From: a virus
Taxonomy: Duplodnaviria > Heunggongvirae > Uroviricota > Caudoviricetes
Direction: 5' to 3' (one strand)
IMG/VR virus record: IMGVR_UViG_2939121850_000001
Length of the DNA: 64,000 nucleotides
Shown here one piece after another: positions 3,838 to 29,146 of the stretch. Each line of letters begins with the position of its first letter. The first letter of the stretch is position 1. Position numbers and translations under genes: made by a program. Below the pieces are notes generated by a model that worked only from the letters and a program-made list of their open reading frames with translations, was not told where the DNA came from and ran no database searches.

Positions 3838-5565
3838 TTGTGTTTAAGGAAGAGTAAATTGAGTAACTTACGCGAATACCAGAATCGTATTGCAGATATC
3901 GCAAAACGCTCTAAAGCTGTGCTTGGCTGGGCAAGCACTGCGCAGTTCGGTACTGATAACCAATTCATTAAAGATGATGCCGCGCGTGCCGCATCTATCC
4001 TTGAAGCTGCACGTAAAGACCCGGTTTTTGCGGGTATCTCTGATAATGCCACCGCTCAAATCGCTACAGCGTGGGCAAGTGCACTGGCTGACTACGCCGC
4101 AGCACATAAATCTATGCCGCGTCCGGAAATTCTGGCCTCCTGCCACCAGACGCTGGAAAACTGCCTGATTGAGTCCACCCGCAATAGCATGGATGCCACT
4201 AATAAAGCGATGCTGGAATCCGTCGCAGCAGAGATGATGAGCGTTTCTGACGGTGTTATGCGTCTGCCTTTATTCCTCGCGATGATCCTGCCTGTTCAGT
4301 TGGGGGCAGCTACCGCTGATGCGTGTACCTTCATTCCGGTTACGCGTGACCAGTCCGACATCTATGAAGTCTTTAACGTGGCAGGTTCCTCTTTTGGTTC
4401 TTATGCTGCTGGTGATGTTCTGGACATGCAATCCGTCGGTGTGTACAGCCAGTTACGTCGCCGCTATGTGCTGGTGGCAAGCTCCGATGGCACTAGCAAA
4501 ACCGCAACCTTCAAGATGGAAGCCTTCGAAGGCCAGAATGTACCAATCCGAAAAGGTCGCACTAACATCTACGTTAACCGTATTAAGTCTGTTGTTGATA
4601 ACGGTTCCGGCAGCCTACTTCACTCGTTTACTAATGCTGCTGGTGAGCAAATCACTGTTACCTGCTCTCTGAACTACAACATTGGTCAGATTGCCCTGTC
4701 GTTCTCCAAAGCGCCGGATAAAGGCACTGAGATCGCAATTGAGACGGAAATCAATATTGAAGCCGCTCCTGAGCTGATCCCGCTGATCAACCACGAAATG
4801 AAGAAATACACCCTGTTCCCAAGTCAGTTCGTTATCGCGGCTGAGCACACGGTACAGGCGGCGTATGAAGCACAGCGTGAATTTGGTCTGGACCTGGGTT
4901 CCCTACAGTTCCGCACCCTGAAGGAATACCTGTCTCATGAACAGGATATGCTGCGTCTTCGCATCATGATCTGGCGCACTCTTGCGACCGACACCTTTGA
5001 CATCGCTCTGCCGGTTAACCAGTCCTTTGATGTATGGGCAACCATCATTCGTGGCAAATTCCAGACTGTATATCGCGACATTATTGAGCGCGTTAAATCT
5101 TCTGGTGCGATGGGGATGTTTGCTGGTGCTGATGCAGCATCTTTCTTCAAACAGTTGCCGAAGGATTTCTTCCAGCCAGCCGAAGACTATATCCAGACTC
5201 CGTATGTTCACTACATCGGTACCCTGTTCGGTAACGTGAAAGTGTACGAAGTACCTGCTGGTATTTGTAAGAACTTAACGACAGAGAACATTCAGTTCAG
5301 CTCGATGGATGTGCTGTGCTACGTCCGTGATGAAAATCCGGGTAAAGCAGGCTTCGTGACTGGTGATGCTGTCCCGGCTATCCCGTTCCAGCATCCGACC
5401 ACTCCGGCGCTGGTCAACCGTACCACACTGTGGGGTTCGGCTATCAACGATATGCACCCACGCAACGGCGCTGATTACTTCACTCGTGTAACGCTGACAA
5501 TGGCCAAAAAAGGCGGGCTTAACTTTATAAGCGGCGACACGATTGATGCCGGTGACTCTGAGTAA
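3838..5565 (+). CDS. Putative major head protein precursor (P1 gene 23 position); start uncertain (track start is TTG)
   Basis: 575-aa ORF next to parS behind a late promoter; Ala-rich helical N-terminal ~170 aa resembles a scaffold/delta domain; synteny only. Confidence 0.5.
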   Translation: MCLRKSKLSNLREYQNRIADIAKRSKAVLGWASTAQFGTDNQFIKDDAARAASILEAARKDPVFAGISDNATAQIATAWASALADYAAAHKSMPRPEILASCHQTLENCLIESTRNSMDATNKAMLESVAAEMMSVSDGVMRLPLFLAMILPVQLGAATADACTFIPVTRDQSDIYEVFNVAGSSFGSYAAGDVLDMQSVGVYSQLRRRYVLVASSDGTSKTATFKMEAFEGQNVPIRKGRTNIYVNRIKSVVDNGSGSLLHSFTNAAGEQITVTCSLNYNIGQIALSFSKAPDKGTEIAIETEINIEAAPELIPLINHEMKKYTLFPSQFVIAAEHTVQAAYEAQREFGLDLGSLQFRTLKEYLSHEQDMLRLRIMIWRTLATDTFDIALPVNQSFDVWATIIRGKFQTVYRDIIERVKSSGAMGMFAGADAASFFKQLPKDFFQPAEDYIQTPYVHYIGTLFGNVKVYEVPAGICKNLTTENIQFSSMDVLCYVRDENPGKAGFVTGDAVPAIPFQHPTTPALVNRTTLWGSAINDMHPRNGADYFTRVTLTMAKKGGLNFISGDTIDAGDSE

Positions 5566-5625: not shown

Positions 5626-7215
5626 ATGTCTCAATATTCAATTCAACAGTCATTAGGTAATGCATCCGGCGTCGCGGTTAGCCCGATCAATGCCGATGCG
5701 ACGTTATCTACCGGTGTTGCATTAAATAGCAGCTTATGGGCTGGTATTGGCGTATTTGCGCGTGGCAAGCCGTTTACTGTTCTTGCGGTTACTGAGTCCA
5801 ATTACGAAGATGTTCTCGGCGAACCGCTGAAGCCGTCTTCCGGCTCACAGTTTGAACCAATTCGCCATGTGTACGAAGCTATTCAGCAAACGTCTGGTTA
5901 TGTTGTCCGTGCTGTTCCGGATGATGCGAAGTTCCCGATTATTATGTTCGATGAATCAGGCGAACCGGCTAACAGTGCGTTGCCATACGGTTCTGAAATT
6001 GAACTTGATAGCGGCGAAGCCTTTGCTATCTACGTTGATGATGGTGATCCGTGTATTTCACCTACCCGTGAGTTAACCATCGAAACGGCAACAGCGGACA
6101 GCGCGGGTAATGAACGCTTCCTCTTAAAACTGACCCAGACGACTTCGCTCGGTGTGGTAACGACCCTGGAGACACACACTGTGTCTTTGGCGGAAGAAGC
6201 GAAAGATGACATGGGCCGCTTGTGTTATCTGCCTACGGCTCTGGAAGCCCGTTCTAAATATCTGCGTGCGGTTGTTAATGAAGAGCTGATTTCTACAGCG
6301 AAAGTAACAAATAAAAAATCGGTGGCATTCACTGGCGGTACCAATGGCGATCAGTCGAAAATCTCAACCGCTGCTTACCTGCGTGCGGTTAAAGTGCTGA
6401 ATAATGCGCCGTACATGTACACCGCTGTTCTTGGCCTGGGCTGCTATGACAATGCGGCTATCACCGCATTAGGTAAAATCTGTGCAGATCGCCTGATTGA
6501 TGGCTTCTTTGATGTCAAACCGACATTAAGGTACGCAGAAGCACTAACAGCTGTTGAGGGTACCGGTTTACTTGGTACCGATTATGTAAGCTGTTCTGTC
6601 TATCACTACCCGTTCTCCTGCAAAGACAAATGGACCCAATCCCGTGTGGTCTTCGGTCTGTCTGGCGCGGCGTATGCGGCGAAAGCTCGTGGCGTCAAGA
6701 AAAACTCTGATGTCGGCGGTTGGCATTACTCACCGGCTGGTGAAGAACGTGCCGTCATTGCTCGTGCGTCAATTCAACCGCTGTATCCGGAAGATACCCC
6801 GGACGAAGAAGCAATGGTCAAGGGCCGTCTCAATAAAGTATCTGTTGGCACCTCTGGCCAGATGATCATCGACGATGCTTTAACTTGCTGCACGCAGGAT
6901 AACTATCTGCACTTCCAGCACGTCCCATCCCTGATGAATGCAATCAGTCGTTTCTTTGTCCAGTTAGCCCGACAGATGAAGCATAGCCCGGACGGTATTA
7001 CTGCGGCTGGCCTGACTAAAGGGATGACCAAACTTTTAGATCGCTTTGTCGCCTCCGGCGCTCTGGTGGCTCCTCGTGATCCCGATGCTGACGGTACAGA
7101 ACCGTATGTGCTGAAAGTTACGCAGGCGGAATTCGATAAATGGGAAGTAGTCTGGGCCTGCTGCCCGACTGGCGTAGCCCGTCGTATCCAGGGCGTACCG
7201 CTGCTTATTAAGTAA
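5626..7215 (+). CDS. Putative contractile tail sheath protein (P1 gene 22 position)
   Basis: 529-aa ORF with SD AGGGA; position between head gene and tube-like genes. Confidence 0.45.
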   Translation: MSQYSIQQSLGNASGVAVSPINADATLSTGVALNSSLWAGIGVFARGKPFTVLAVTESNYEDVLGEPLKPSSGSQFEPIRHVYEAIQQTSGYVVRAVPDDAKFPIIMFDESGEPANSALPYGSEIELDSGEAFAIYVDDGDPCISPTRELTIETATADSAGNERFLLKLTQTTSLGVVTTLETHTVSLAEEAKDDMGRLCYLPTALEARSKYLRAVVNEELISTAKVTNKKSVAFTGGTNGDQSKISTAAYLRAVKVLNNAPYMYTAVLGLGCYDNAAITALGKICADRLIDGFFDVKPTLRYAEALTAVEGTGLLGTDYVSCSVYHYPFSCKDKWTQSRVVFGLSGAAYAAKARGVKKNSDVGGWHYSPAGEERAVIARASIQPLYPEDTPDEEAMVKGRLNKVSVGTSGQMIIDDALTCCTQDNYLHFQHVPSLMNAISRFFVQLARQMKHSPDGITAAGLTKGMTKLLDRFVASGALVAPRDPDADGTEPYVLKVTQAEFDKWEVVWACCPTGVARRIQGVPLLIK

Positions 7216-7224
7216 GGGAATACA

Positions 7225-8040
7225 ATGAGCAAAAACTTTTTTCAATCCGGGGCATTTTTGGGGAATGGACTGTCCCGTTTCGCTTTGAACTCTGATCCTG
7301 TGCAGCTGATGGAGTCTGCCCGAGCAAGCGCCGAACCGCCAACAGATCCGGTTATTAATAATAATCCGGAACCGGCGGCACAGACTAACGATAACGTTCC
7401 ATCTGCCCCGGCTCCAGAGCAAATCCTGGAAGGGAAAGACGGTAAAGAATGGACCGTCGAACAGGCGCACCAGATGATTCTGGAAGCTGCAAATCGAAGT
7501 GCTATGCAGAATGCGTTGAGTGATGCGGCCGACGCCGTTTTCTCCTGGGCTGATAGCGGTGATCTGACTTTCGACTCCCTTGATGGTTTCGTTCAGGCTA
7601 TCGCTGGTATCTCTGATGACGACGACTCCGAAGTTACAGAAGAACAGGACGATGCCTATAACGAAGCATGGGCAAATGTTGCTGACTTCCTCGCAGCATG
7701 CGGTGTAGATGATGACCTGATCGAAGCACTGGCTGACGATGAAGACGACGACGCAGCTGCTGATGTTGGTGCCTCTATCGCTGGTTTAGATAGCGACGAC
7801 CGCGACGAACTGGAAGCGGCGTTTGTTGTTGCTGGCACTTCTGATGAAATGCTGATTGAAGCATTTAAGAAGGTTGTTCGTAACGGTGAGATCAAACTCA
7901 TCCGTAAACGCCTGCGTAAAAAACGTCTGACTGCGGCTCAAAAATCGGCGCTGAAAAAAGCGCGTCGAAAAGCCCAGACCGGCGCGGCAAAACTTGCCCG
8001 CAAAAAGTCAATGAAACTGCGCCGTAAGCGCCTTGGCTAA
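7225..8040 (+). CDS. Highly acidic protein with strongly basic C-terminal tail, function unknown
   Basis: 271-aa ORF; long D/E runs then KLIRKRLRKKRL...KLRRKRLG. Confidence 0.5.
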   Translation: MSKNFFQSGAFLGNGLSRFALNSDPVQLMESARASAEPPTDPVINNNPEPAAQTNDNVPSAPAPEQILEGKDGKEWTVEQAHQMILEAANRSAMQNALSDAADAVFSWADSGDLTFDSLDGFVQAIAGISDDDDSEVTEEQDDAYNEAWANVADFLAACGVDDDLIEALADDEDDDAAADVGASIAGLDSDDRDELEAAFVVAGTSDEMLIEAFKKVVRNGEIKLIRKRLRKKRLTAAQKSALKKARRKAQTGAAKLARKKSMKLRRKRLG

Positions 8041-8075: not shown

Positions 8076-8657
8076 ATGGCACCTATACCTTATGGGGTTT
8101 ACAGCCAGGCTGACGGTGTATCGCCATTTCTGAAAGTTACTTTAACGAACTCTCAGTACCAGGTTACCGGATATATCAGCCAGGGGGCAGCAATGAACAT
8201 GGCCCAGAATTGGGAAGCGCCGTTTACCGGTATGTCCATGGGGTCTGTTGCTGGTGCTTTCAGTGGTTTTGCGCAGGTTGGTACTGAAACAACGTCGGTG
8301 GCCCGTTGGAACAGCTTAATGGTTTGGGAGGGGGGAACACCGCCGACTTTCACGCTGCCAGTAACTTTCATCGCTTTGTTTGACCCATTCACTGAGGTTT
8401 CAGGAGCTATCGCCGCATTGTCAGCGATGATTAGCCCGGAACTTAAAGATGCCAGCATTGGTGGTCGAATCCCGGAGCGTGTGACGCTAAACATTGGTCG
8501 CCGGATCAACATCATTGATGTCGCTATCCAGGACATAAGTTTCGATCTCGATGCGCCCAGGGACAGCAATGGGCATTTCCTGAAAAACACCGTCAACCTC
8601 CAGTTGACCGGTTCTTCGATATATAACAGCTCCGATATTGTTCGGGCGTTCCAGTAA
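8076..8657 (+). CDS. Putative tail tube protein
   Basis: 193-aa (~21 kDa) ORF after sheath-like gene; assignment by synteny and size. Confidence 0.45.
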   Translation: MAPIPYGVYSQADGVSPFLKVTLTNSQYQVTGYISQGAAMNMAQNWEAPFTGMSMGSVAGAFSGFAQVGTETTSVARWNSLMVWEGGTPPTFTLPVTFIALFDPFTEVSGAIAALSAMISPELKDASIGGRIPERVTLNIGRRINIIDVAIQDISFDLDAPRDSNGHFLKNTVNLQLTGSSIYNSSDIVRAFQ

Positions 8658-8668
8658 AAGGATTTTAT

Positions 8669-9178
8669 ATGGGGCACAATAACACTAAGGGAAACCGTAA
8701 ATTTATTAAGGGCCGCTATACTGCCAACGCGGCCAAAGGCGAACGACTGGTATCTTCTGAATTCCAGCTCACTTTTGCAGGCCATGAAGATATCAGCGTA
8801 CTGGTTCGCACGTCGCAAATTCCTGAAATGACCCGCGAGGATGTGGAGGACTATGGTCCGAATGGTGTGAAGTTCAACCAGCACGGTCCAATTCGAAACT
8901 CTGGGGAAATCCAGGTCCAGTGCGTGGAGACTATCGAAGGCGATATTCTTCAGTTCATTAAAGATCGCATTGCGGCGAAGGACTATGTTGATATCACGAT
9001 GGCTGCGACCCCTGAATCCAAATCTTCCGGGGTTAACGCTGTGACAAAAGCTGCTACAACAATTGAAATGTTGGACTGCAAAATCTACAGTGATGCAATC
9101 GACTTTAGTACCGAAGATGTGACTGCCGCTGTGCGCCCGTCACTTCGTATCGTCTACAACTGGATTGAGTGGGATTAA
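8669..9178 (+). CDS. Putative tail tube or tail structural protein
   Basis: 169-aa ORF, last gene of operon before a strong terminator. Confidence 0.45.
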   Translation: MGHNNTKGNRKFIKGRYTANAAKGERLVSSEFQLTFAGHEDISVLVRTSQIPEMTREDVEDYGPNGVKFNQHGPIRNSGEIQVQCVETIEGDILQFIKDRIAAKDYVDITMAATPESKSSGVNAVTKAATTIEMLDCKIYSDAIDFSTEDVTAAVRPSLRIVYNWIEWD

Positions 9179-23742: not shown

Positions 23743-26700
23743 ATGAATGACGTTACAGTTGTCACATCGGTTACTTACCCATCACCCGAGTCGTTGGCTC
23801 TGGTGGCTGATGTGCAATACCACGAACCATATCTGTCAGCCGCGCTAAACCGAAAATTCAGGGGAATTGTTGACCCTGGATTTTATGCCGGTTTTTTTCC
23901 TAAGCCTGGCGGTGGGATGAACCTGTTAATCACCTCAGTGGATGGTGATAAAACCGCTGGCGCGGCGTCAGTGAATATTGGTGAATTCTACCAGGTAACT
24001 ATTCAGCAGCGTAAGGATATTTCTCTTGCACTTAGCGCAGGTAAGAAATATGCAATTGTGCTGAAGGGAAGATACCTCCTTGGAGAAGATTCTTATCAGG
24101 TTAATACCGCGTCACATATTCATGCGGCTGAATTTGTTGCCAGAACCTATACCGATTCATATCAGTTAGGAGATGGGGAACTGCTTGTTTGTACGGTGAA
24201 TATCCCTGCTGGCGTATCTGCTATTACTAAGGAAATGATAGATGTATCCGACCGCATCGATCTCGCGATAGGCATTGAAATTTCCGACTCTGTAACCAGT
24301 ACCAGAAGTGATGTCGCTGCAAGTTCGCTGGCGGTTAAAAAAGCCTACGATCTGGCTAAAAGCAAGTATACGGCGCAGGATGCAAGCACAACACAAAAGG
24401 GATTAGTTCAGCTCAGTAGCGCAACTAACAGCGACAGCGAAACAATGGCGGCTACCCCTAAAGCCGTTAAGTCTGTAAAAGAGCTGGCTGATACCAAAGC
24501 GCCAATAGAAAGCCCGAGTCTGACAGGAACGCCAACCGCGCCGACGGCAGCGCAAGGTACAAACAGCACGCAGATCGCAAATACAGCCTTTGTTAAGGCA
24601 GCTATAACGGCACTTATCAACGGTGCACCTGGCACACTGGATACGCTTAAAGAAATAGCGGCTGCGATCAATAACGACCCGAATTTTAGCACAACTATCA
24701 ACAATGCTCTGGCTCTTAAAGCTCCTTTAGCAAGTCCTGCATTAACGGGAATACCTACTGCGCCTACCGCTGCACAGGGTACGAATAACACGCAGATTGC
24801 TACGACCGCTTATGTAAGAGCTGCTATCTCTGCATTGGTCGGCTCATCACCTGAAGCTCTTGATACCCTGAATGAGCTTGCAGCAGCACTGGGCAATGAC
24901 CCGAACTTTGCGACAACAATGACAAATGCGCTGGCAGGCAAACAGCCTCTGGATGCAACTTTAACCGCGCTCGCTGCCCTTGCGACTGGTGCAAACAAAC
25001 TGCCTTATTTCACTGGTAAGGATACGGTAGCGCAGACTGATTTAACGTCAGTCGGTCGCGATATTCTGGCTAAAACAAGCACACTGGCCGTTATCCAATA
25101 CCTTGGTTTAAGAGAACTCGGTACCAGCGGTGAAAAGATCCCCCTGTTGAGTACGGCTAACACATGGAGTGCACGCCAGACTTTCAACGGCGGGATCACC
25201 GGGGCACTGACAGGGAACGCCGACACCGCGACGAAATTGAAAACAGCACGCACGATTGGCGGTGTGGCATTTGATGGCTCGGCCAATATCAACCTTCCAG
25301 GTGTAAATACAACAGGTAACCAGAACACCACCGGGAATGCTGCTACCGCGACAAAACTTGCGACGGCAAGAAACATCAACGGTGTTAAATTTGATGGTTC
25401 AGGGGACGTTAATATCAATACGTTGGTATCACGCGGGCGCGTAACGGCGTTAAGTGGCTCTACTCAGGGTACTGCTGGCATTCAAATGTACGAGGCGTAC
25501 AACAATAGCTACCCGACCACGTATGGCAACGTATTGCACATGAAAGGTGCGAGTGCTGCTGGTGAGGGCGAGTTGCTTATTGGCTGGAGTGGTACGAGCG
25601 GTGCACATGCGCCGGTTTTCATTCGCTCCCGAAGAGATAACACTGATGCGGCATGGTCAGCGTGGGCGCAGGTATATACATCAAGGGACTCCATTCCTGG
25701 TGTGAATGCCACTGGCAATCAGAATACAACTGGCAATGCAGCAACCGCTACAAAACTACAGACGGCAAGAACTATCGGCGGAGTTAGCTTTGATGGTACT
25801 GCGAATATTAATTTACCTGGTGTTAATACGACTGGTAATCAGAATACAACGGGCAACGCTGCAACCGCTACAAAACTACAGACAGCGCGTACAATCAACG
25901 GTGTTAAGTTTGATGGTTCTGCGGACATAACGCTGACTCCTGCGAACCTTGACGTATACAGCAAAAGCGAAATAGACAATAAAAAAGGGATGAGAAAATA
26001 CACTTTTTCAGCGCCTGCAAATGCAGTAAGCGGTAAGTGGTATCCTGTAGTCTTTCGCCGAACTGGTGGTGGCACAGATGAATTAGCCTCACGAGTGGTT
26101 ATCACCACTCATTCCTCAGCTGGCGGATACGCCATGAATAATTGTGAATTTAATGGGTTTGTTATGCCTGGCGGTTGGTCTGAACGCGGTTCATATGCGG
26201 CTGGTTTTTTCGCAATATATTCTACTGCTGAGCGAGCTATACACTCGATTATCGCAAGCGTGAAAGATGATGATTTGTGTAGTGTATTTTACGTTGAGAC
26301 AAGAGCATTCCCTATCCAGATTTTTGCTGAGGAAGGATTAAATGTGATTGTTCCAACGGCTGATTATGCAGTTGGTCAAACCACTTATAAGTGGGGGGCA
26401 ACTGATCCTTTATCAGAAAGTACGAATGCAAAGATAATTTTGGACTTTAAAAATGGACGAGGTTATTACTGTTCACATCCATTTATTTCAAGTCTTTCAG
26501 GAAATGCTGCTACAGCCACGAAATTGCAGACTGCAAGGACTATCGGCGGCGTGGCCTTCGATGGATCTGCGAACATAAATTTGCCTGGTGTAAATACGGC
26601 AGGTAATCAGAATACAACGGGCAACGCGGCTACAGCTACGAAGTTGCAAACTGCTAGAAAAATAAGCGGCGTGTCTTTTGATGGTTCTGCTGATATAACA

Positions 26701-27780
26701 CTAACAGCTGAAAATGTATCTGCTTTTGCTCTACGCGCTACTGGAACTTATGCCGATACTAGTGGTGCGGTCCCGTGGAATGCCGAATCAGGTGCGTATA
26801 ATGTTACACGCTCCGGGGATTCTTATATCGTTGCAAATTTTTATACAGGCGTAGGTAGTTGTCGGACTCTCCAAATCCGAGCGCACCATAAAAATGGTGG
26901 ATTGTATTACCGTTCATCACGTGATGGCTATGGGTTCGAAGAGGGCTGGGCTCAGATATATACTAAAAAAGACAGCATCCCTGGTGTGAATACAACTGGT
27001 AATCAGAACACTACTGGCAATGCTGCAACTGCAACAAAACTGCAAACAGCACGCACAATAGGCGGCGTGTCATTCGATGGCTCCGCCAATATTAATCTTC
27101 CAGGTGTAAACACTACGGGTAATCAGAACACCACTGGTAATGCTGCAACTGCCACAAAACTACAGACTGCACGGAATATCAACGGCGTTCCGTTTGACGG
27201 CACGAAGGATATTACGCTTACGCCTAAAGATCTGGATGCCTACAGCAAAAGCGAAGTACAGAGCGCACTGGCGGGCAAACAACCGCTGGACAATACGCTG
27301 ACTAATTTGAGTGGAAAGGATGTTGCTGGTCTTCTCGCATACCTTCAATTGGGAGAAGCGGCAAAACGGGATGTCGGAGCCGGTAATAATCAACTCCCGG
27401 ACATGTCCGCATTTGGTATGTCGCGAAACGGACAAACTGCCTGGGATATTCTCCCAAATGGTATGATTCGACAGGTTGGCACTGTGACACTGACACCAGT
27501 TGGTAACTTCAACGCGCAGGTGCTTGGTGGGGTGACGTACTACACCCATTACTACAGGGTTAATTTCCCCAGACAATTCCCAAATGCACAAATAGCAACG
27601 CTGGCAACACTAGCGAGTTACAGCTTTTCGACCCAGTCATCAATGGCTGGGAAATCACTGGCAACGCATCGCGATACTGATTCTGGCACTGACGTATCAA
27701 GAACGCGATTCACTGTGTCGTATACGACACCCAATCTCGGCGAAATTCCGACTTTGCATTTTGAAGCAATAGGATACTAA
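23743..27780 (+). CDS. Tail fiber protein (very long, modular)
   Basis: 1345-aa ORF from ATG 23743; repeated collar-like units GNAATATKLQTAR-I-GV-FDGSANINLPGVNTTGNQNTTGNAATATKLQTAR and two paralogous knob-like domains. Confidence 0.8.
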   Translation: MNDVTVVTSVTYPSPESLALVADVQYHEPYLSAALNRKFRGIVDPGFYAGFFPKPGGGMNLLITSVDGDKTAGAASVNIGEFYQVTIQQRKDISLALSAGKKYAIVLKGRYLLGEDSYQVNTASHIHAAEFVARTYTDSYQLGDGELLVCTVNIPAGVSAITKEMIDVSDRIDLAIGIEISDSVTSTRSDVAASSLAVKKAYDLAKSKYTAQDASTTQKGLVQLSSATNSDSETMAATPKAVKSVKELADTKAPIESPSLTGTPTAPTAAQGTNSTQIANTAFVKAAITALINGAPGTLDTLKEIAAAINNDPNFSTTINNALALKAPLASPALTGIPTAPTAAQGTNNTQIATTAYVRAAISALVGSSPEALDTLNELAAALGNDPNFATTMTNALAGKQPLDATLTALAALATGANKLPYFTGKDTVAQTDLTSVGRDILAKTSTLAVIQYLGLRELGTSGEKIPLLSTANTWSARQTFNGGITGALTGNADTATKLKTARTIGGVAFDGSANINLPGVNTTGNQNTTGNAATATKLATARNINGVKFDGSGDVNINTLVSRGRVTALSGSTQGTAGIQMYEAYNNSYPTTYGNVLHMKGASAAGEGELLIGWSGTSGAHAPVFIRSRRDNTDAAWSAWAQVYTSRDSIPGVNATGNQNTTGNAATATKLQTARTIGGVSFDGTANINLPGVNTTGNQNTTGNAATATKLQTARTINGVKFDGSADITLTPANLDVYSKSEIDNKKGMRKYTFSAPANAVSGKWYPVVFRRTGGGTDELASRVVITTHSSAGGYAMNNCEFNGFVMPGGWSERGSYAAGFFAIYSTAERAIHSIIASVKDDDLCSVFYVETRAFPIQIFAEEGLNVIVPTADYAVGQTTYKWGATDPLSESTNAKIILDFKNGRGYYCSHPFISSLSGNAATATKLQTARTIGGVAFDGSANINLPGVNTAGNQNTTGNAATATKLQTARKISGVSFDGSADITLTAENVSAFALRATGTYADTSGAVPWNAESGAYNVTRSGDSYIVANFYTGVGSCRTLQIRAHHKNGGLYYRSSRDGYGFEEGWAQIYTKKDSIPGVNTTGNQNTTGNAATATKLQTARTIGGVSFDGSANINLPGVNTTGNQNTTGNAATATKLQTARNINGVPFDGTKDITLTPKDLDAYSKSEVQSALAGKQPLDNTLTNLSGKDVAGLLAYLQLGEAAKRDVGAGNNQLPDMSAFGMSRNGQTAWDILPNGMIRQVGTVTLTPVGNFNAQVLGGVTYYTHYYRVNFPRQFPNAQIATLATLASYSFSTQSSMAGKSLATHRDTDSGTDVSRTRFTVSYTTPNLGEIPTLHFEAIGY
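25200..27225 (+). repeat. Four in-frame copies of a ~230-bp tail fiber module
   Basis: Copies near 25200, 25690, 26500, 26975; protein near-identical, DNA differing mainly at synonymous sites; AT-rich unique domain at ~25980-26500 interrupts the series. Confidence 0.7.
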
Positions 27781-27782
27781 AT

Positions 27783-28016
27783 ATGGAGAATATGTATTTC
27801 AGCCCAACGACCGTTGGTTTTTATGTTTCTGAACAAGAGCGACCTGATGATGCGGTTGAAGTCTCGCCAGAGGTGGAGGCATTTTTGAGGGAGTGTGTTA
27901 TCTGGGGAGCGGATACATTTAACGTAGAGCGAGATGCAGCAACGGTGACATATCCAACAGAACTGCTTGAATATGTCACCACCTACAACGCCCCCGTTAA
28001 ATATCCTGCGGATTGA
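27783..28016 (+). CDS. Small tail fiber-associated protein (possible truncated assembly chaperone)
   Basis: 77-aa ORF 3 bp after tail fiber stop; 3' end overlaps convergent tfa remnant. Confidence 0.4.
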
Positions 28017-28327
28017 CAGGCCATACGGGTTTTGCTGTATCAACGCGCATCAGCAGGATCCGGCATTTCTTCGATTCAGAAAGCGCGGCGGTTTCCTCAT
28101 CCGTCGCGATACCGGCATCAACCGCATCCTATCGCCAGGCGATTTCAGAGTCCGCTTGAGCCTTTAAGCTTAATTTCCTGGCTTCTGCAATAGCCATTAG
28201 CTCTTCTTTCGTTGGAGGAGGAACATCCCCCCATGCGGGTTGTCCATTCTCTCCGCAAATACGTATTTTTCCTTCCGGTGGCGTCTGAGTAAAGCAGTGT
28301 TTTGGTCATTTGTTGATACGCGTACAT
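27997..28327 (-). pseudogene. Decayed tail fiber assembly (tfa-like) gene in inverted orientation
   Basis: Hand translation gives ...GENGQPAWGDVPPPTKEELMAIAEARKLSLKAQADSEIAWR-(TAG)[43 protein letters not shown]; a frameshift separates it from its ATG at 28327. Confidence 0.5.
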
Positions 28328-28467
28328 AGCCTATTAGCATATTTTCTGCTCACTATCGTTATTTATAGCAAGCTGCGGATTTTAATTAACAAAAACCAGT
28401 ATGTGTGGAAATCACAAAGTACATACCGTTTCCCAATGATATTTAATTCACTATTAAGGAAATAGTT

Positions 28468-28749
28468 ATGTGTGATTTCACAATAATGCTCCTCTCCATC
28501 CTTGGCGGGGTGCATTCGTTTCTGAATGGGGTTCGTGAAAAACGTTACGAAGCGTCATGCAGGCAATTGATGGCCGAGTGTATTGCTGCCGTACTTGCAG
28601 GCTTTATAGGCATGTATTTCGCGGAATATAAGGGTATGGATGAAAGTCTTCAGAATTGCGTGACTATTATTTGCAGCATCAATAACAGGCTCATTCTTGA
28701 AAAGTTACAAAGGATTATCGATTCGCACCTCAATAGAAATGCCTCTTAA
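28468..28749 (+). CDS. Small membrane protein (possible holin/antiholin-like)
   Basis: 93-aa ORF, one clear TM segment CIAAVLAGFIGMYFA; AT-rich; upstream of lydA. Confidence 0.4.
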   Translation: MCDFTIMLLSILGGVHSFLNGVREKRYEASCRQLMAECIAAVLAGFIGMYFAEYKGMDESLQNCVTIICSINNRLILEKLQRIIDSHLNRNAS

Positions 28750-28769
28750 GCAACAAATGACCGGTTGAG

Positions 28770-28788
28770 AAGTTACTTTGCATACCAT
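28770..28788 (+). promoter_or_regulatory. Late promoter element AAGTTACTT-N4-TACCAT
   Basis: Perfect palindrome 28 nt upstream of the lydA GTG start. Confidence 0.45.
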
Positions 28789-28816
28789 TACCTCCTGACA
28801 ACGTAGGAGGGAACTT

Positions 28817-29146
28817 GTGCTTGACACACAGGAATTAGCTCCAGTTGCTATTGCGCTCCTGCTTTCAGTAATTGGTGGGATAGGCACGTTCCTGATGGAT
28901 GTCCGAGACGGTCGCCAGTCTGGCAATTTGTTGGGATTGGTTACGGAGATCTTTGTTGCAGTGACAGCTGGCGCGGTGGCGTACCTATTGGGGCAACACG
29001 AGGGCTGGGAGTTATCAATTACGTACTTAATGGTAACGATAGCCAGCAATAACGGTCATGAGGTGATTTCAGGGATGAAACGAGTGAATATCGATAGCAT
29101 TCTGAATGTTCTTACAAGTTTGGTGAAAAAGGGAGGCGGGAAATGA
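28817..29146 (+). CDS. lydA: Holin LydA
   Basis: 109-aa ORF, GTG start with SD AGGAGGG, three hydrophobic segments; first gene of the operon containing darA. Confidence 0.7.
   Translation: MLDTQELAPVAIALLLSVIGGIGTFLMDVRDGRQSGNLLGLVTEIFVAVTAGAVAYLLGQHEGWELSITYLMVTIASNNGHEVISGMKRVNIDSILNVLTSLVKKGGGK

Follow-up and report, generated by a model that had tools for sequence, protein, structure and literature searches.

In phage P1, the slot between the tail-fiber gene S and lydC is annotated as holding an invertible C segment (Sv, U, U' and Sv', between cixR and cixL) and the invertase gene cin, which is transcribed toward the C segment and divergently from lydC. Among P1-like plasmids, this cin-Sv'-U'-U-S block is known to vary (PMC9603915). 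The question raised by the locus described here is whether the same slot of a related element contains what is left of such a host-range switch and, if so, how the switch was lost. The stretch of DNA that was analyzed (64 kb, hereafter the window) is a P1-like phage-plasmid whose nearest relatives are E. coli A1_181 p_unnamed2 and phage phi456, with 99.3 and 99.5% identity, respectively, over the stretch from S to cin. An original prediction had described S followed by a 77-aa ORF and, on the opposite strand, a decayed remnant resembling a tail-fiber assembly (tfa) gene, and had proposed that the inversion system was lost at this place. S and the small ORF are as described, S ending at 27780 and the ORF spanning 27783–28016 on the plus strand, and our analysis indicates that the region is very probably a non-functional remnant of a Din-family (Cin/Pin-type) invertible tail-fiber segment. 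The features of the region are the following:

23743–27780, plus strand: tail-fiber gene S, 1345 aa (ORF; start according to the RefSeq annotation of pKBN10P04869B)
25091–25116, plus strand: crossover site within S, identical to P1 cixR, TTATCCAATACC TT GGTTTAAGAGAA
27332–27357, plus strand: second Din-type crossover site within S, TTCTCGCATACC TT CAATTGGGAGAA
27345–27780, plus strand: expressed variable fiber end, Gp53-like_C domain (Pfam PF21882, E = 4.2e-6)
27783–28016, plus strand: ORF77 (WP_001619155.1), 77 aa, intact and conserved
27997–28293, minus strand: tfa pseudogene, codons 44–141 of a 141-aa Caudo_TAP tail-fiber assembly protein, without start codon or RBS
28059–28073, minus strand: missense changes W to S (28073), Y to C (28064) and V to I (28059) in the conserved WKKYRV motif
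28129–28131, minus strand: in-frame TAG in place of CAG (Gln), the intact homologues of MIN9 and phi458 having CAG
28197–28340, minus strand: chimeric 47-aa ORF, cin ATG read out of frame into the tfa fragment
28289–28293, minus strand: junction with 5-bp microhomology TTTAC (P1 cin nt 47–51 / tfa codons 44–45)
28289–28322, minus strand: retained 34 bp of the 72-bp recombinational enhancer of P1 cin (P1 record 5963–6034)
28289–28340, minus strand: cin 5' stub, 17 codons, MLIGYVRVSTNDQNTAL (P1 annotation transferred; 1 nt differs from P1)
28349–28462, minus strand: cin RBS and predicted promoters P1cin and P2cin (P1 annotation, identity 99.6–99.8%)
From 28468: lydC, lydA and lydB

The cin stub, the junction and the tfa pseudogene

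The right side of the region (lydC, lydA, lydB, hdf, darA and following genes) is 98–99% identical to phage P1, and the P1 identity (98.4% over 6.9 kb, from the dar/lyd operon to the cin promoters) ends at 28289, 51 nt into cin, where position 6001 of the P1 record corresponds to 28289 of the window. The ATG at 28340, from which the original prediction had read a frameshifted tfa start, is the start codon of P1 cin and is contiguous with this P1-like stretch; the claimed frameshift from a tfa start codon is thus mistaken, and the annotation has to be corrected from tfa to cin. Likewise, the statement that the locus has no cin stands insofar as no working gene is present, but a 17-codon stub and the promoter region survive. 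The stub also carries the remnant 10 nt beyond the end given for it at 28330, to 28340, and what had been described as an AT-rich stretch before the lydA operon is the P1 cin-lydC intergenic region with the annotated P1cin and P2cin. Of the enzyme, the stub keeps the catalytic-serine motif and no other part.

The junction was placed by a three-way alignment of P1, the window and the prophage of E. coli MIN9. Identity with P1 runs to ...ACACTGCTTTAC, identity with the tfa gene of the MIN9 prophage starts at TTTACTCAGACGCC..., and the two overlap in TTTAC, which joins the tfa fragment to cin out of frame. To judge from the alignment, this overlap is most probably the signature of one illegitimate, microhomology-mediated join. 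A join made by an invertase at a quasi-site was considered and rejected, as TTTAC is unlike any crossover site and lies inside cin rather than at cixL. The possibility that the H8 plasmid shares the same junction was also discarded: its similarity to the window ends at 28293 as well, but its cin continues past this point in decayed form, so that the shared end-point marks only where the window diverges. As a separate observation, the chimeric 47-aa ORF could be transcribed and translated as junk, and its transcript would be antisense to ORF77. A promoter and terminator scan of 27600–28900 returned nothing relevant above the shuffled expectation.

On the other side of the junction, the presence of a Tfa-like C-terminus on the opposite strand, with a TAG where such proteins usually have Gln, is fully borne out. 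The remnant (27997–28293) matches Pfam Caudo_TAP (PF02413) over profile positions 36–131 of 131 with E = 2.9e-22 and 79.7 bits (cut-off 22.1), which is far beyond chance. A complete tfa ORF with its own start does not exist here, since the first 43 codons are gone and the TAG falls at codon 99 of the full-length gene. The NCBI PGAP/RefSeq annotation already marks the remnant as a pseudogene ('internal stop', 'missing N-terminus'). When compared to the intact MIN9 gene, the 297-nt fragment shows five differences, four of them non-synonymous (Gln to stop, W to S, Y to C and V to I). The TAG is common to every examined copy that bears the tfa/cin junction. In this regard, pE2-2 is informative: it has the junction and the TAG while W, Y and V are still intact, indicating that decay went on after the join. 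We also observed that the window and pE2-2 differ at 7 of the 28 nt in 28056–28083, each departing from MIN9 at a separate subset of positions, a clustering that seems better matched by gene conversion from a second tfa paralogue than by point mutations arising separately.

Alignment of the remnant to Tfa and U proteins confirmed the Caudo_TAP assignment and placed prophage tfa genes closest, P1 U being a weak match. The idea that the remnant is P1 U' was rejected, given that P1 U matches at 39% and over the conserved C-terminal 69 residues only, and that U' does not match there. In line with this, window positions 27265–28293, which include the fiber end at 27345–27780, align ungapped over 1029 bp with the P2-like prophage cassette of E. 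coli MIN9 (O176:H45) at 97.8% identity, and the cassette of fiber end, ORF77 and tfa is 94–96% identical to that of lambdoid phage phi458. On these identities, the tfa remnant belongs to a foreign cassette that is shared with P2-like prophages and not to the C segment of P1 itself.

The junction is not private to the window. A 721-bp query covering ORF77, the tfa fragment and the cin stub was matched end to end, at 98.9–100% identity, in 23 plasmids from complete E. coli genomes whose hosts include humans, pigs, a gull and a panda on several continents, and the same junction with the TAG is also found in 18 PLSDB plasmids and in phage phi456. These near-identical copies point to one recent lineage and are silent on selection. 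Phage phi456 forms plaques on E. coli MC1061 (PMC10967188), which means that the locked arrangement is compatible with infective virions.

Crossover sites, the missing invertase and relatives that keep the switch

Gene S combines a P1-like constant part with four diverged modules in its interior and a C-terminal end of acquired origin; as far as 25247 it shares 92.8% identity with P1 S. The module copies, of 190–300 nt and 71–79% identical, lie in 25210–27246 and start at 25210, 25729, 26497 and 27013. The length of S varies among otherwise near-identical plasmids, from 818 aa in phi456 to 1233 in pKBN10P04869B, 1245 in pXJW9B263-2 and 1345 in the window, which suggests that modules are gained and lost through recombination. 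At the very tip, differences from MIN9 are clustered in 27625–27754, the last 50 codons of S, where 9 of 13 nucleotide differences are non-synonymous and seven residues are changed; diversifying selection or patchy recombination acting on a receptor-binding tip would be expected to leave such a pattern.

A consensus scan of the window for Din-type crossover sites found two only, both inside S and both with the central TT on the plus strand, that is, as direct repeats. No third site scoring at least 14 of the 20 consensus positions is present in the window, and in a control at the 15/20 threshold 17 of 20 shuffled sequences gave no site and the other three gave one each. On its left side, the acquired invertible cassette is bounded by the site at 27332–27357, which is oriented like the cixR-type site. 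A pair of inverted sites flanking the segment is therefore absent, both surviving sites being upstream of it.

The enzyme is missing as well. With P1 Cin as tblastn query, the sole match in the 64-kb window was the N-terminal stub (residues 1–17, 19 aligned, 28340–28284), and tblastn against the other 34.6 kb of the closest complete replicon found no Cin homologue; the annotation of that replicon likewise has no recombinase entry. An intact serine invertase of ~186–194 aa, with resolvase catalytic domain and HTH, is thus found neither in the window nor in the remainder of that replicon. The search of the whole replicon for cin/hin-family recombinases and cix-like sites that had been proposed with the original prediction hence ends with no invertase in the window or the rest of the closest replicon and, in the window, with two directly oriented sites only, and its observation that neither an invertase nor an alternative fiber C-terminus follows is correct, the next genes being lydC, lydA and lydB. 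One fiber end and ORF77 are intact; the other set is reduced to tfa codons 44–141, with no second fiber end. As for the recombinational enhancer, a Fis-binding element that P1 has in the 5' part of cin, 34 of the 72 annotated bp are left. Consequently, none of the four structural requirements of a Din-type switch (invertase, inverted sites, enhancer and two fiber-end/chaperone sets) is present in full. Direct orientation of the sites together with half an enhancer should make inversion impossible even with an invertase supplied in trans.

The comparison with relatives that retain the switch, another check proposed at the outset, returned intact invertase, both fiber ends and flipped isomers. 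In the P1-like plasmids H8 plasmid A, pXJW9B263-2 and pEC13-3, the P1 slot is occupied by the full cassette, its invertase intact. This enzyme (190 aa, 76% identical to Cin) is encoded in the orientation opposite to P1 cin, both fiber ends are kept, and the invertase gene adjoins what is left of the original P1-type cin, a decayed stub of 59 codons. This stub, which contains stop codons and is convergent with the incoming invertase gene, lies at 8452–8772 in pXJW9B263-2 and at ~5697–6000 in H8 plasmid A. Since it has 59 codons versus 17 in the window, the original cin was cut at different points. The P1-like plasmids with the switch also have a different tfa allele, 57–59% identical overall.

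Relative to the window, H8 plasmid A and pXJW9B263-2 carry the segment in the other orientation, with the strand switch at 27341–27360, which is the cassette site. Both orientations are thus represented among the relatives only, and no flipped isomer was found among carriers of the fossil junction. Crossover sites were located at 6064–6089, 7598–7623 and 8555–8580 in pEC13-3 and at 4356–4381 and 6264–6289 in pXJW9B263-2. In pEC13-3 the sites are hybrids in which cixR-type and cassette halves have been exchanged at the central dinucleotide, indicating that three sites, the cixR-type one included, are used in these relatives in a shufflon-like manner. The fiber gene of pEC13-3 is split across isomers.

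How the switch was lost

The cin stub, the directly oriented sites, the missing second fiber end and the relatives that keep the switch all support the proposal that the inversion system was lost. The ancestor would have had the constant part of S followed by a crossover site and by fiber end A with ORF77; in the opposite orientation would have come fiber end B with its chaperone Tfa, and then a second crossover site and the invertase gene. One illegitimate recombination at TTTAC would have joined nucleotide 51 of a P1-type cin to tfa codon 44, eliminating the remaining invertase sequence, the outer crossover site, fiber end B and the first 43 tfa codons. The phage would then be left making only fiber end A with ORF77, while the tfa fragment, devoid of a start codon, would later have gained the nonsense and the three missense changes. 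We infer that a single event caused the loss, and the host range would thereby be fixed to one. A deletion between the two direct sites, brought about by an invertase of the host, is formally conceivable.

Two routes to this join have to be weighed, and we consider them about equally probable; either way one join disabled the switch. The product could stem from an intramolecular deletion of ~1.5 kb in a P1-like plasmid that already had the complete three-site cassette and invertase, an ancestor like pXJW9B263-2 or H8 plasmid A in flipped orientation. This has nearly an even chance of being right: the long S, including the site at 27332–27357, is 98–99% identical to that of these two holders of a complete switch, both also keep a P1-type cin stub beside the cassette, and a 5-bp microhomology is typical of simple deletions. 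However, the cin stub of these relatives differs from that of the window at ~10 of 70 nt, when P1 differs at one, their tfa allele diverges over the N-terminal two-thirds, and no P1-like plasmid was found with the MIN9-type allele. No direct ancestor was found either, as no P1-like plasmid in PLSDB has an intact MIN9-type tfa 5' half. The near identity of the stub to P1 counts in turn for the cassette fragment having been taken directly from a P2-like prophage in the host, the capture itself destroying the switch, which we regard as being just as close to an even chance. Here a homologous (or site-specific) crossover at ~27265–27360 in S would have been combined with an illegitimate one at TTTAC, at a time when the P1-type cin was still intact. 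Chromosomal P2-like prophages match at 97.8% identity exactly as far as the junction, and the tfa allele is otherwise found only in six E. coli chromosomes and in one Enterobacter kobei plasmid (P2-like tail cluster). Capture nevertheless requires an intermolecular double event, and no recipient with a long S and an intact P1-type cin has been identified.

Loss of the switch was also weighed against two readings in which the remnant is not what it seems. That the stop codon and the truncation are a sequencing or assembly artefact, tfa being really intact, is a negligible prospect: an identical junction with the TAG is present in 23 independently assembled plasmids from several countries and hosts and in phi456, and bona fide P1 cin sequence takes the place of the missing 43 codons. 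Apart from the general possibility of error, all that speaks for an artefact is a 1-nt insertion in ORF77 of pFXCREC123-5 that resembles one. It is somewhat less far-fetched, though still highly improbable, that the remnant is kept for a function, either because antisense RNA from Pcin would cross ORF77 and the S 3' end and thereby tune fiber expression, or because the 47-aa chimera would be made and used. In this regard, the cin RBS and the two predicted promoters have been preserved as in P1, the promoters face the 47-aa ORF, and the minus strand showed no terminator-like site in 27600–28900. Nevertheless, in P1 these promoters already drive transcription into the C segment, so that their presence needs nothing new; conservation among carriers reflects recent common descent only; and the tfa fragment is gathering damaging changes. 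A non-functional remnant is the reading retained below.

ORF77, comparison with known systems and significance

ORF77, rather than the fossil, is the least ordinary element of the span. It differs by one residue from its MIN9 homologue and is identical to the phi458 protein, and its family, all members of which are annotated as hypothetical, keeps the 77-aa length down to 59% identity in Escherichia, Citrobacter, Enterobacter and Phytobacter. At every locus examined ORF77 follows a Gp53-like_C fiber end and occupies the position of the fiber chaperone; it has no counterpart of the conserved C-terminal region of Caudo_TAP proteins, yet it sits in the slot that these take for other fiber ends. 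The AlphaFold2 model is a confident alpha/beta fold (pLDDT 91). ORF77 has no Pfam match, and only residues 1–31 match PHROG188 (tail fiber assembly, E = 8e-5). Comparison with short Tfas by hhalign is not significant (E = 0.057, probability ~1%), a fold search of the PDB gave no counterpart among solved structures, and the best matches among the predicted viral structures of BFVD are weak, namely an unnamed 157-aa protein (E = 0.027) and a 60-aa 'tail fiber assembly protein' (E = 0.038). The partial PHROG match is therefore alone in favor of ORF77 being an N-terminal Tfa domain, profile-profile and PDB comparisons being negative and BFVD weak. Its position suggests that it is a partner of the gp53-like fiber end. 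Tentatively, ORF77 may be an uncharacterised minimal partner (a chaperone or a tip-bound factor) of fiber ends with gp53-like C-terminal domains, although we would not call this the probable outcome.

With the C segment and Cin of P1 (and also the G segment and Gin of Mu), the locus has in common its placement (S on one side, lydC on the other), the promoter region and the initial 17 codons of cin, an identical cixR within S, and the logic of two convergent pairs of fiber end and chaperone. Unlike P1, the window has no working cin, cixL, Sv', U or U', its enhancer is halved, and its fiber end, ORF77 and tfa fragment bear no relation to Sv, U and U' of P1. The Pin-type cassettes of P2-like and lambdoid elements (MIN9, phi458 and the E. 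kobei plasmid) share with it the fiber end, ORF77 and tfa at 94–98% DNA identity, in the same order and orientation and with the same left crossover site. In these cassettes, by contrast, tfa is complete (136–141 aa) and is followed by a short second fiber end, a right-hand site and an invertase gene transcribed away from the segment. Several of them are also decayed: the MIN9 invertase is frameshifted, and phi458 has IS1 and a 93-aa invertase fragment.

The Min system of plasmid p15B is a multiple-inversion system. With their three sites and several fiber isomers, pEC13-3, pXJW9B263-2 and H8 plasmid A would resemble it, whereas the window keeps two sites in direct orientation and no invertase. 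Min of p15B has been cited for pJIE250-3 (PMC6906374). The same study reported a partial N-terminal cin and an incomplete C segment in the P1-like plasmids pSvP1, pTZ20_1P and pJIE250-3, for which a restricted host range was likewise inferred (Venturini et al., 2019; PMC6906374). Those plasmids and the window have decayed in the same manner: an N-terminal piece of cin persists and the tail-tip switch is gone. In pSvP1, pTZ20_1P and pJIE250-3, however, the losses are mostly IS-mediated and large tail modules are gone, while the window has a clean microhomology join, a complete tail gene set and an infective sister phage, phi456.

Taken together, the window is a further example of a known and ordinary type of decay. 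Such plasmids turn up frequently in E. coli of clinical and animal origin, and resistance genes are a frequent cargo of the P1-like phage-plasmids in general. Truncated cin genes and lost C segments in P1-like plasmids were already known (PMC6906374), and the case opens no new question; particular to it are the clean microhomology junction, the P2-like origin of the cassette and the two orphan crossover sites in S. Its value is modest and lies in a base-pair account of the loss of a host-range switch in one lineage of P1-like phage-plasmids. The switch that was lost is a cassette shared with P2-like prophages which, in sister plasmids, works with the old cixR as a three-site shufflon, and this account is useful for predicting which P1-like elements still vary their fibers.
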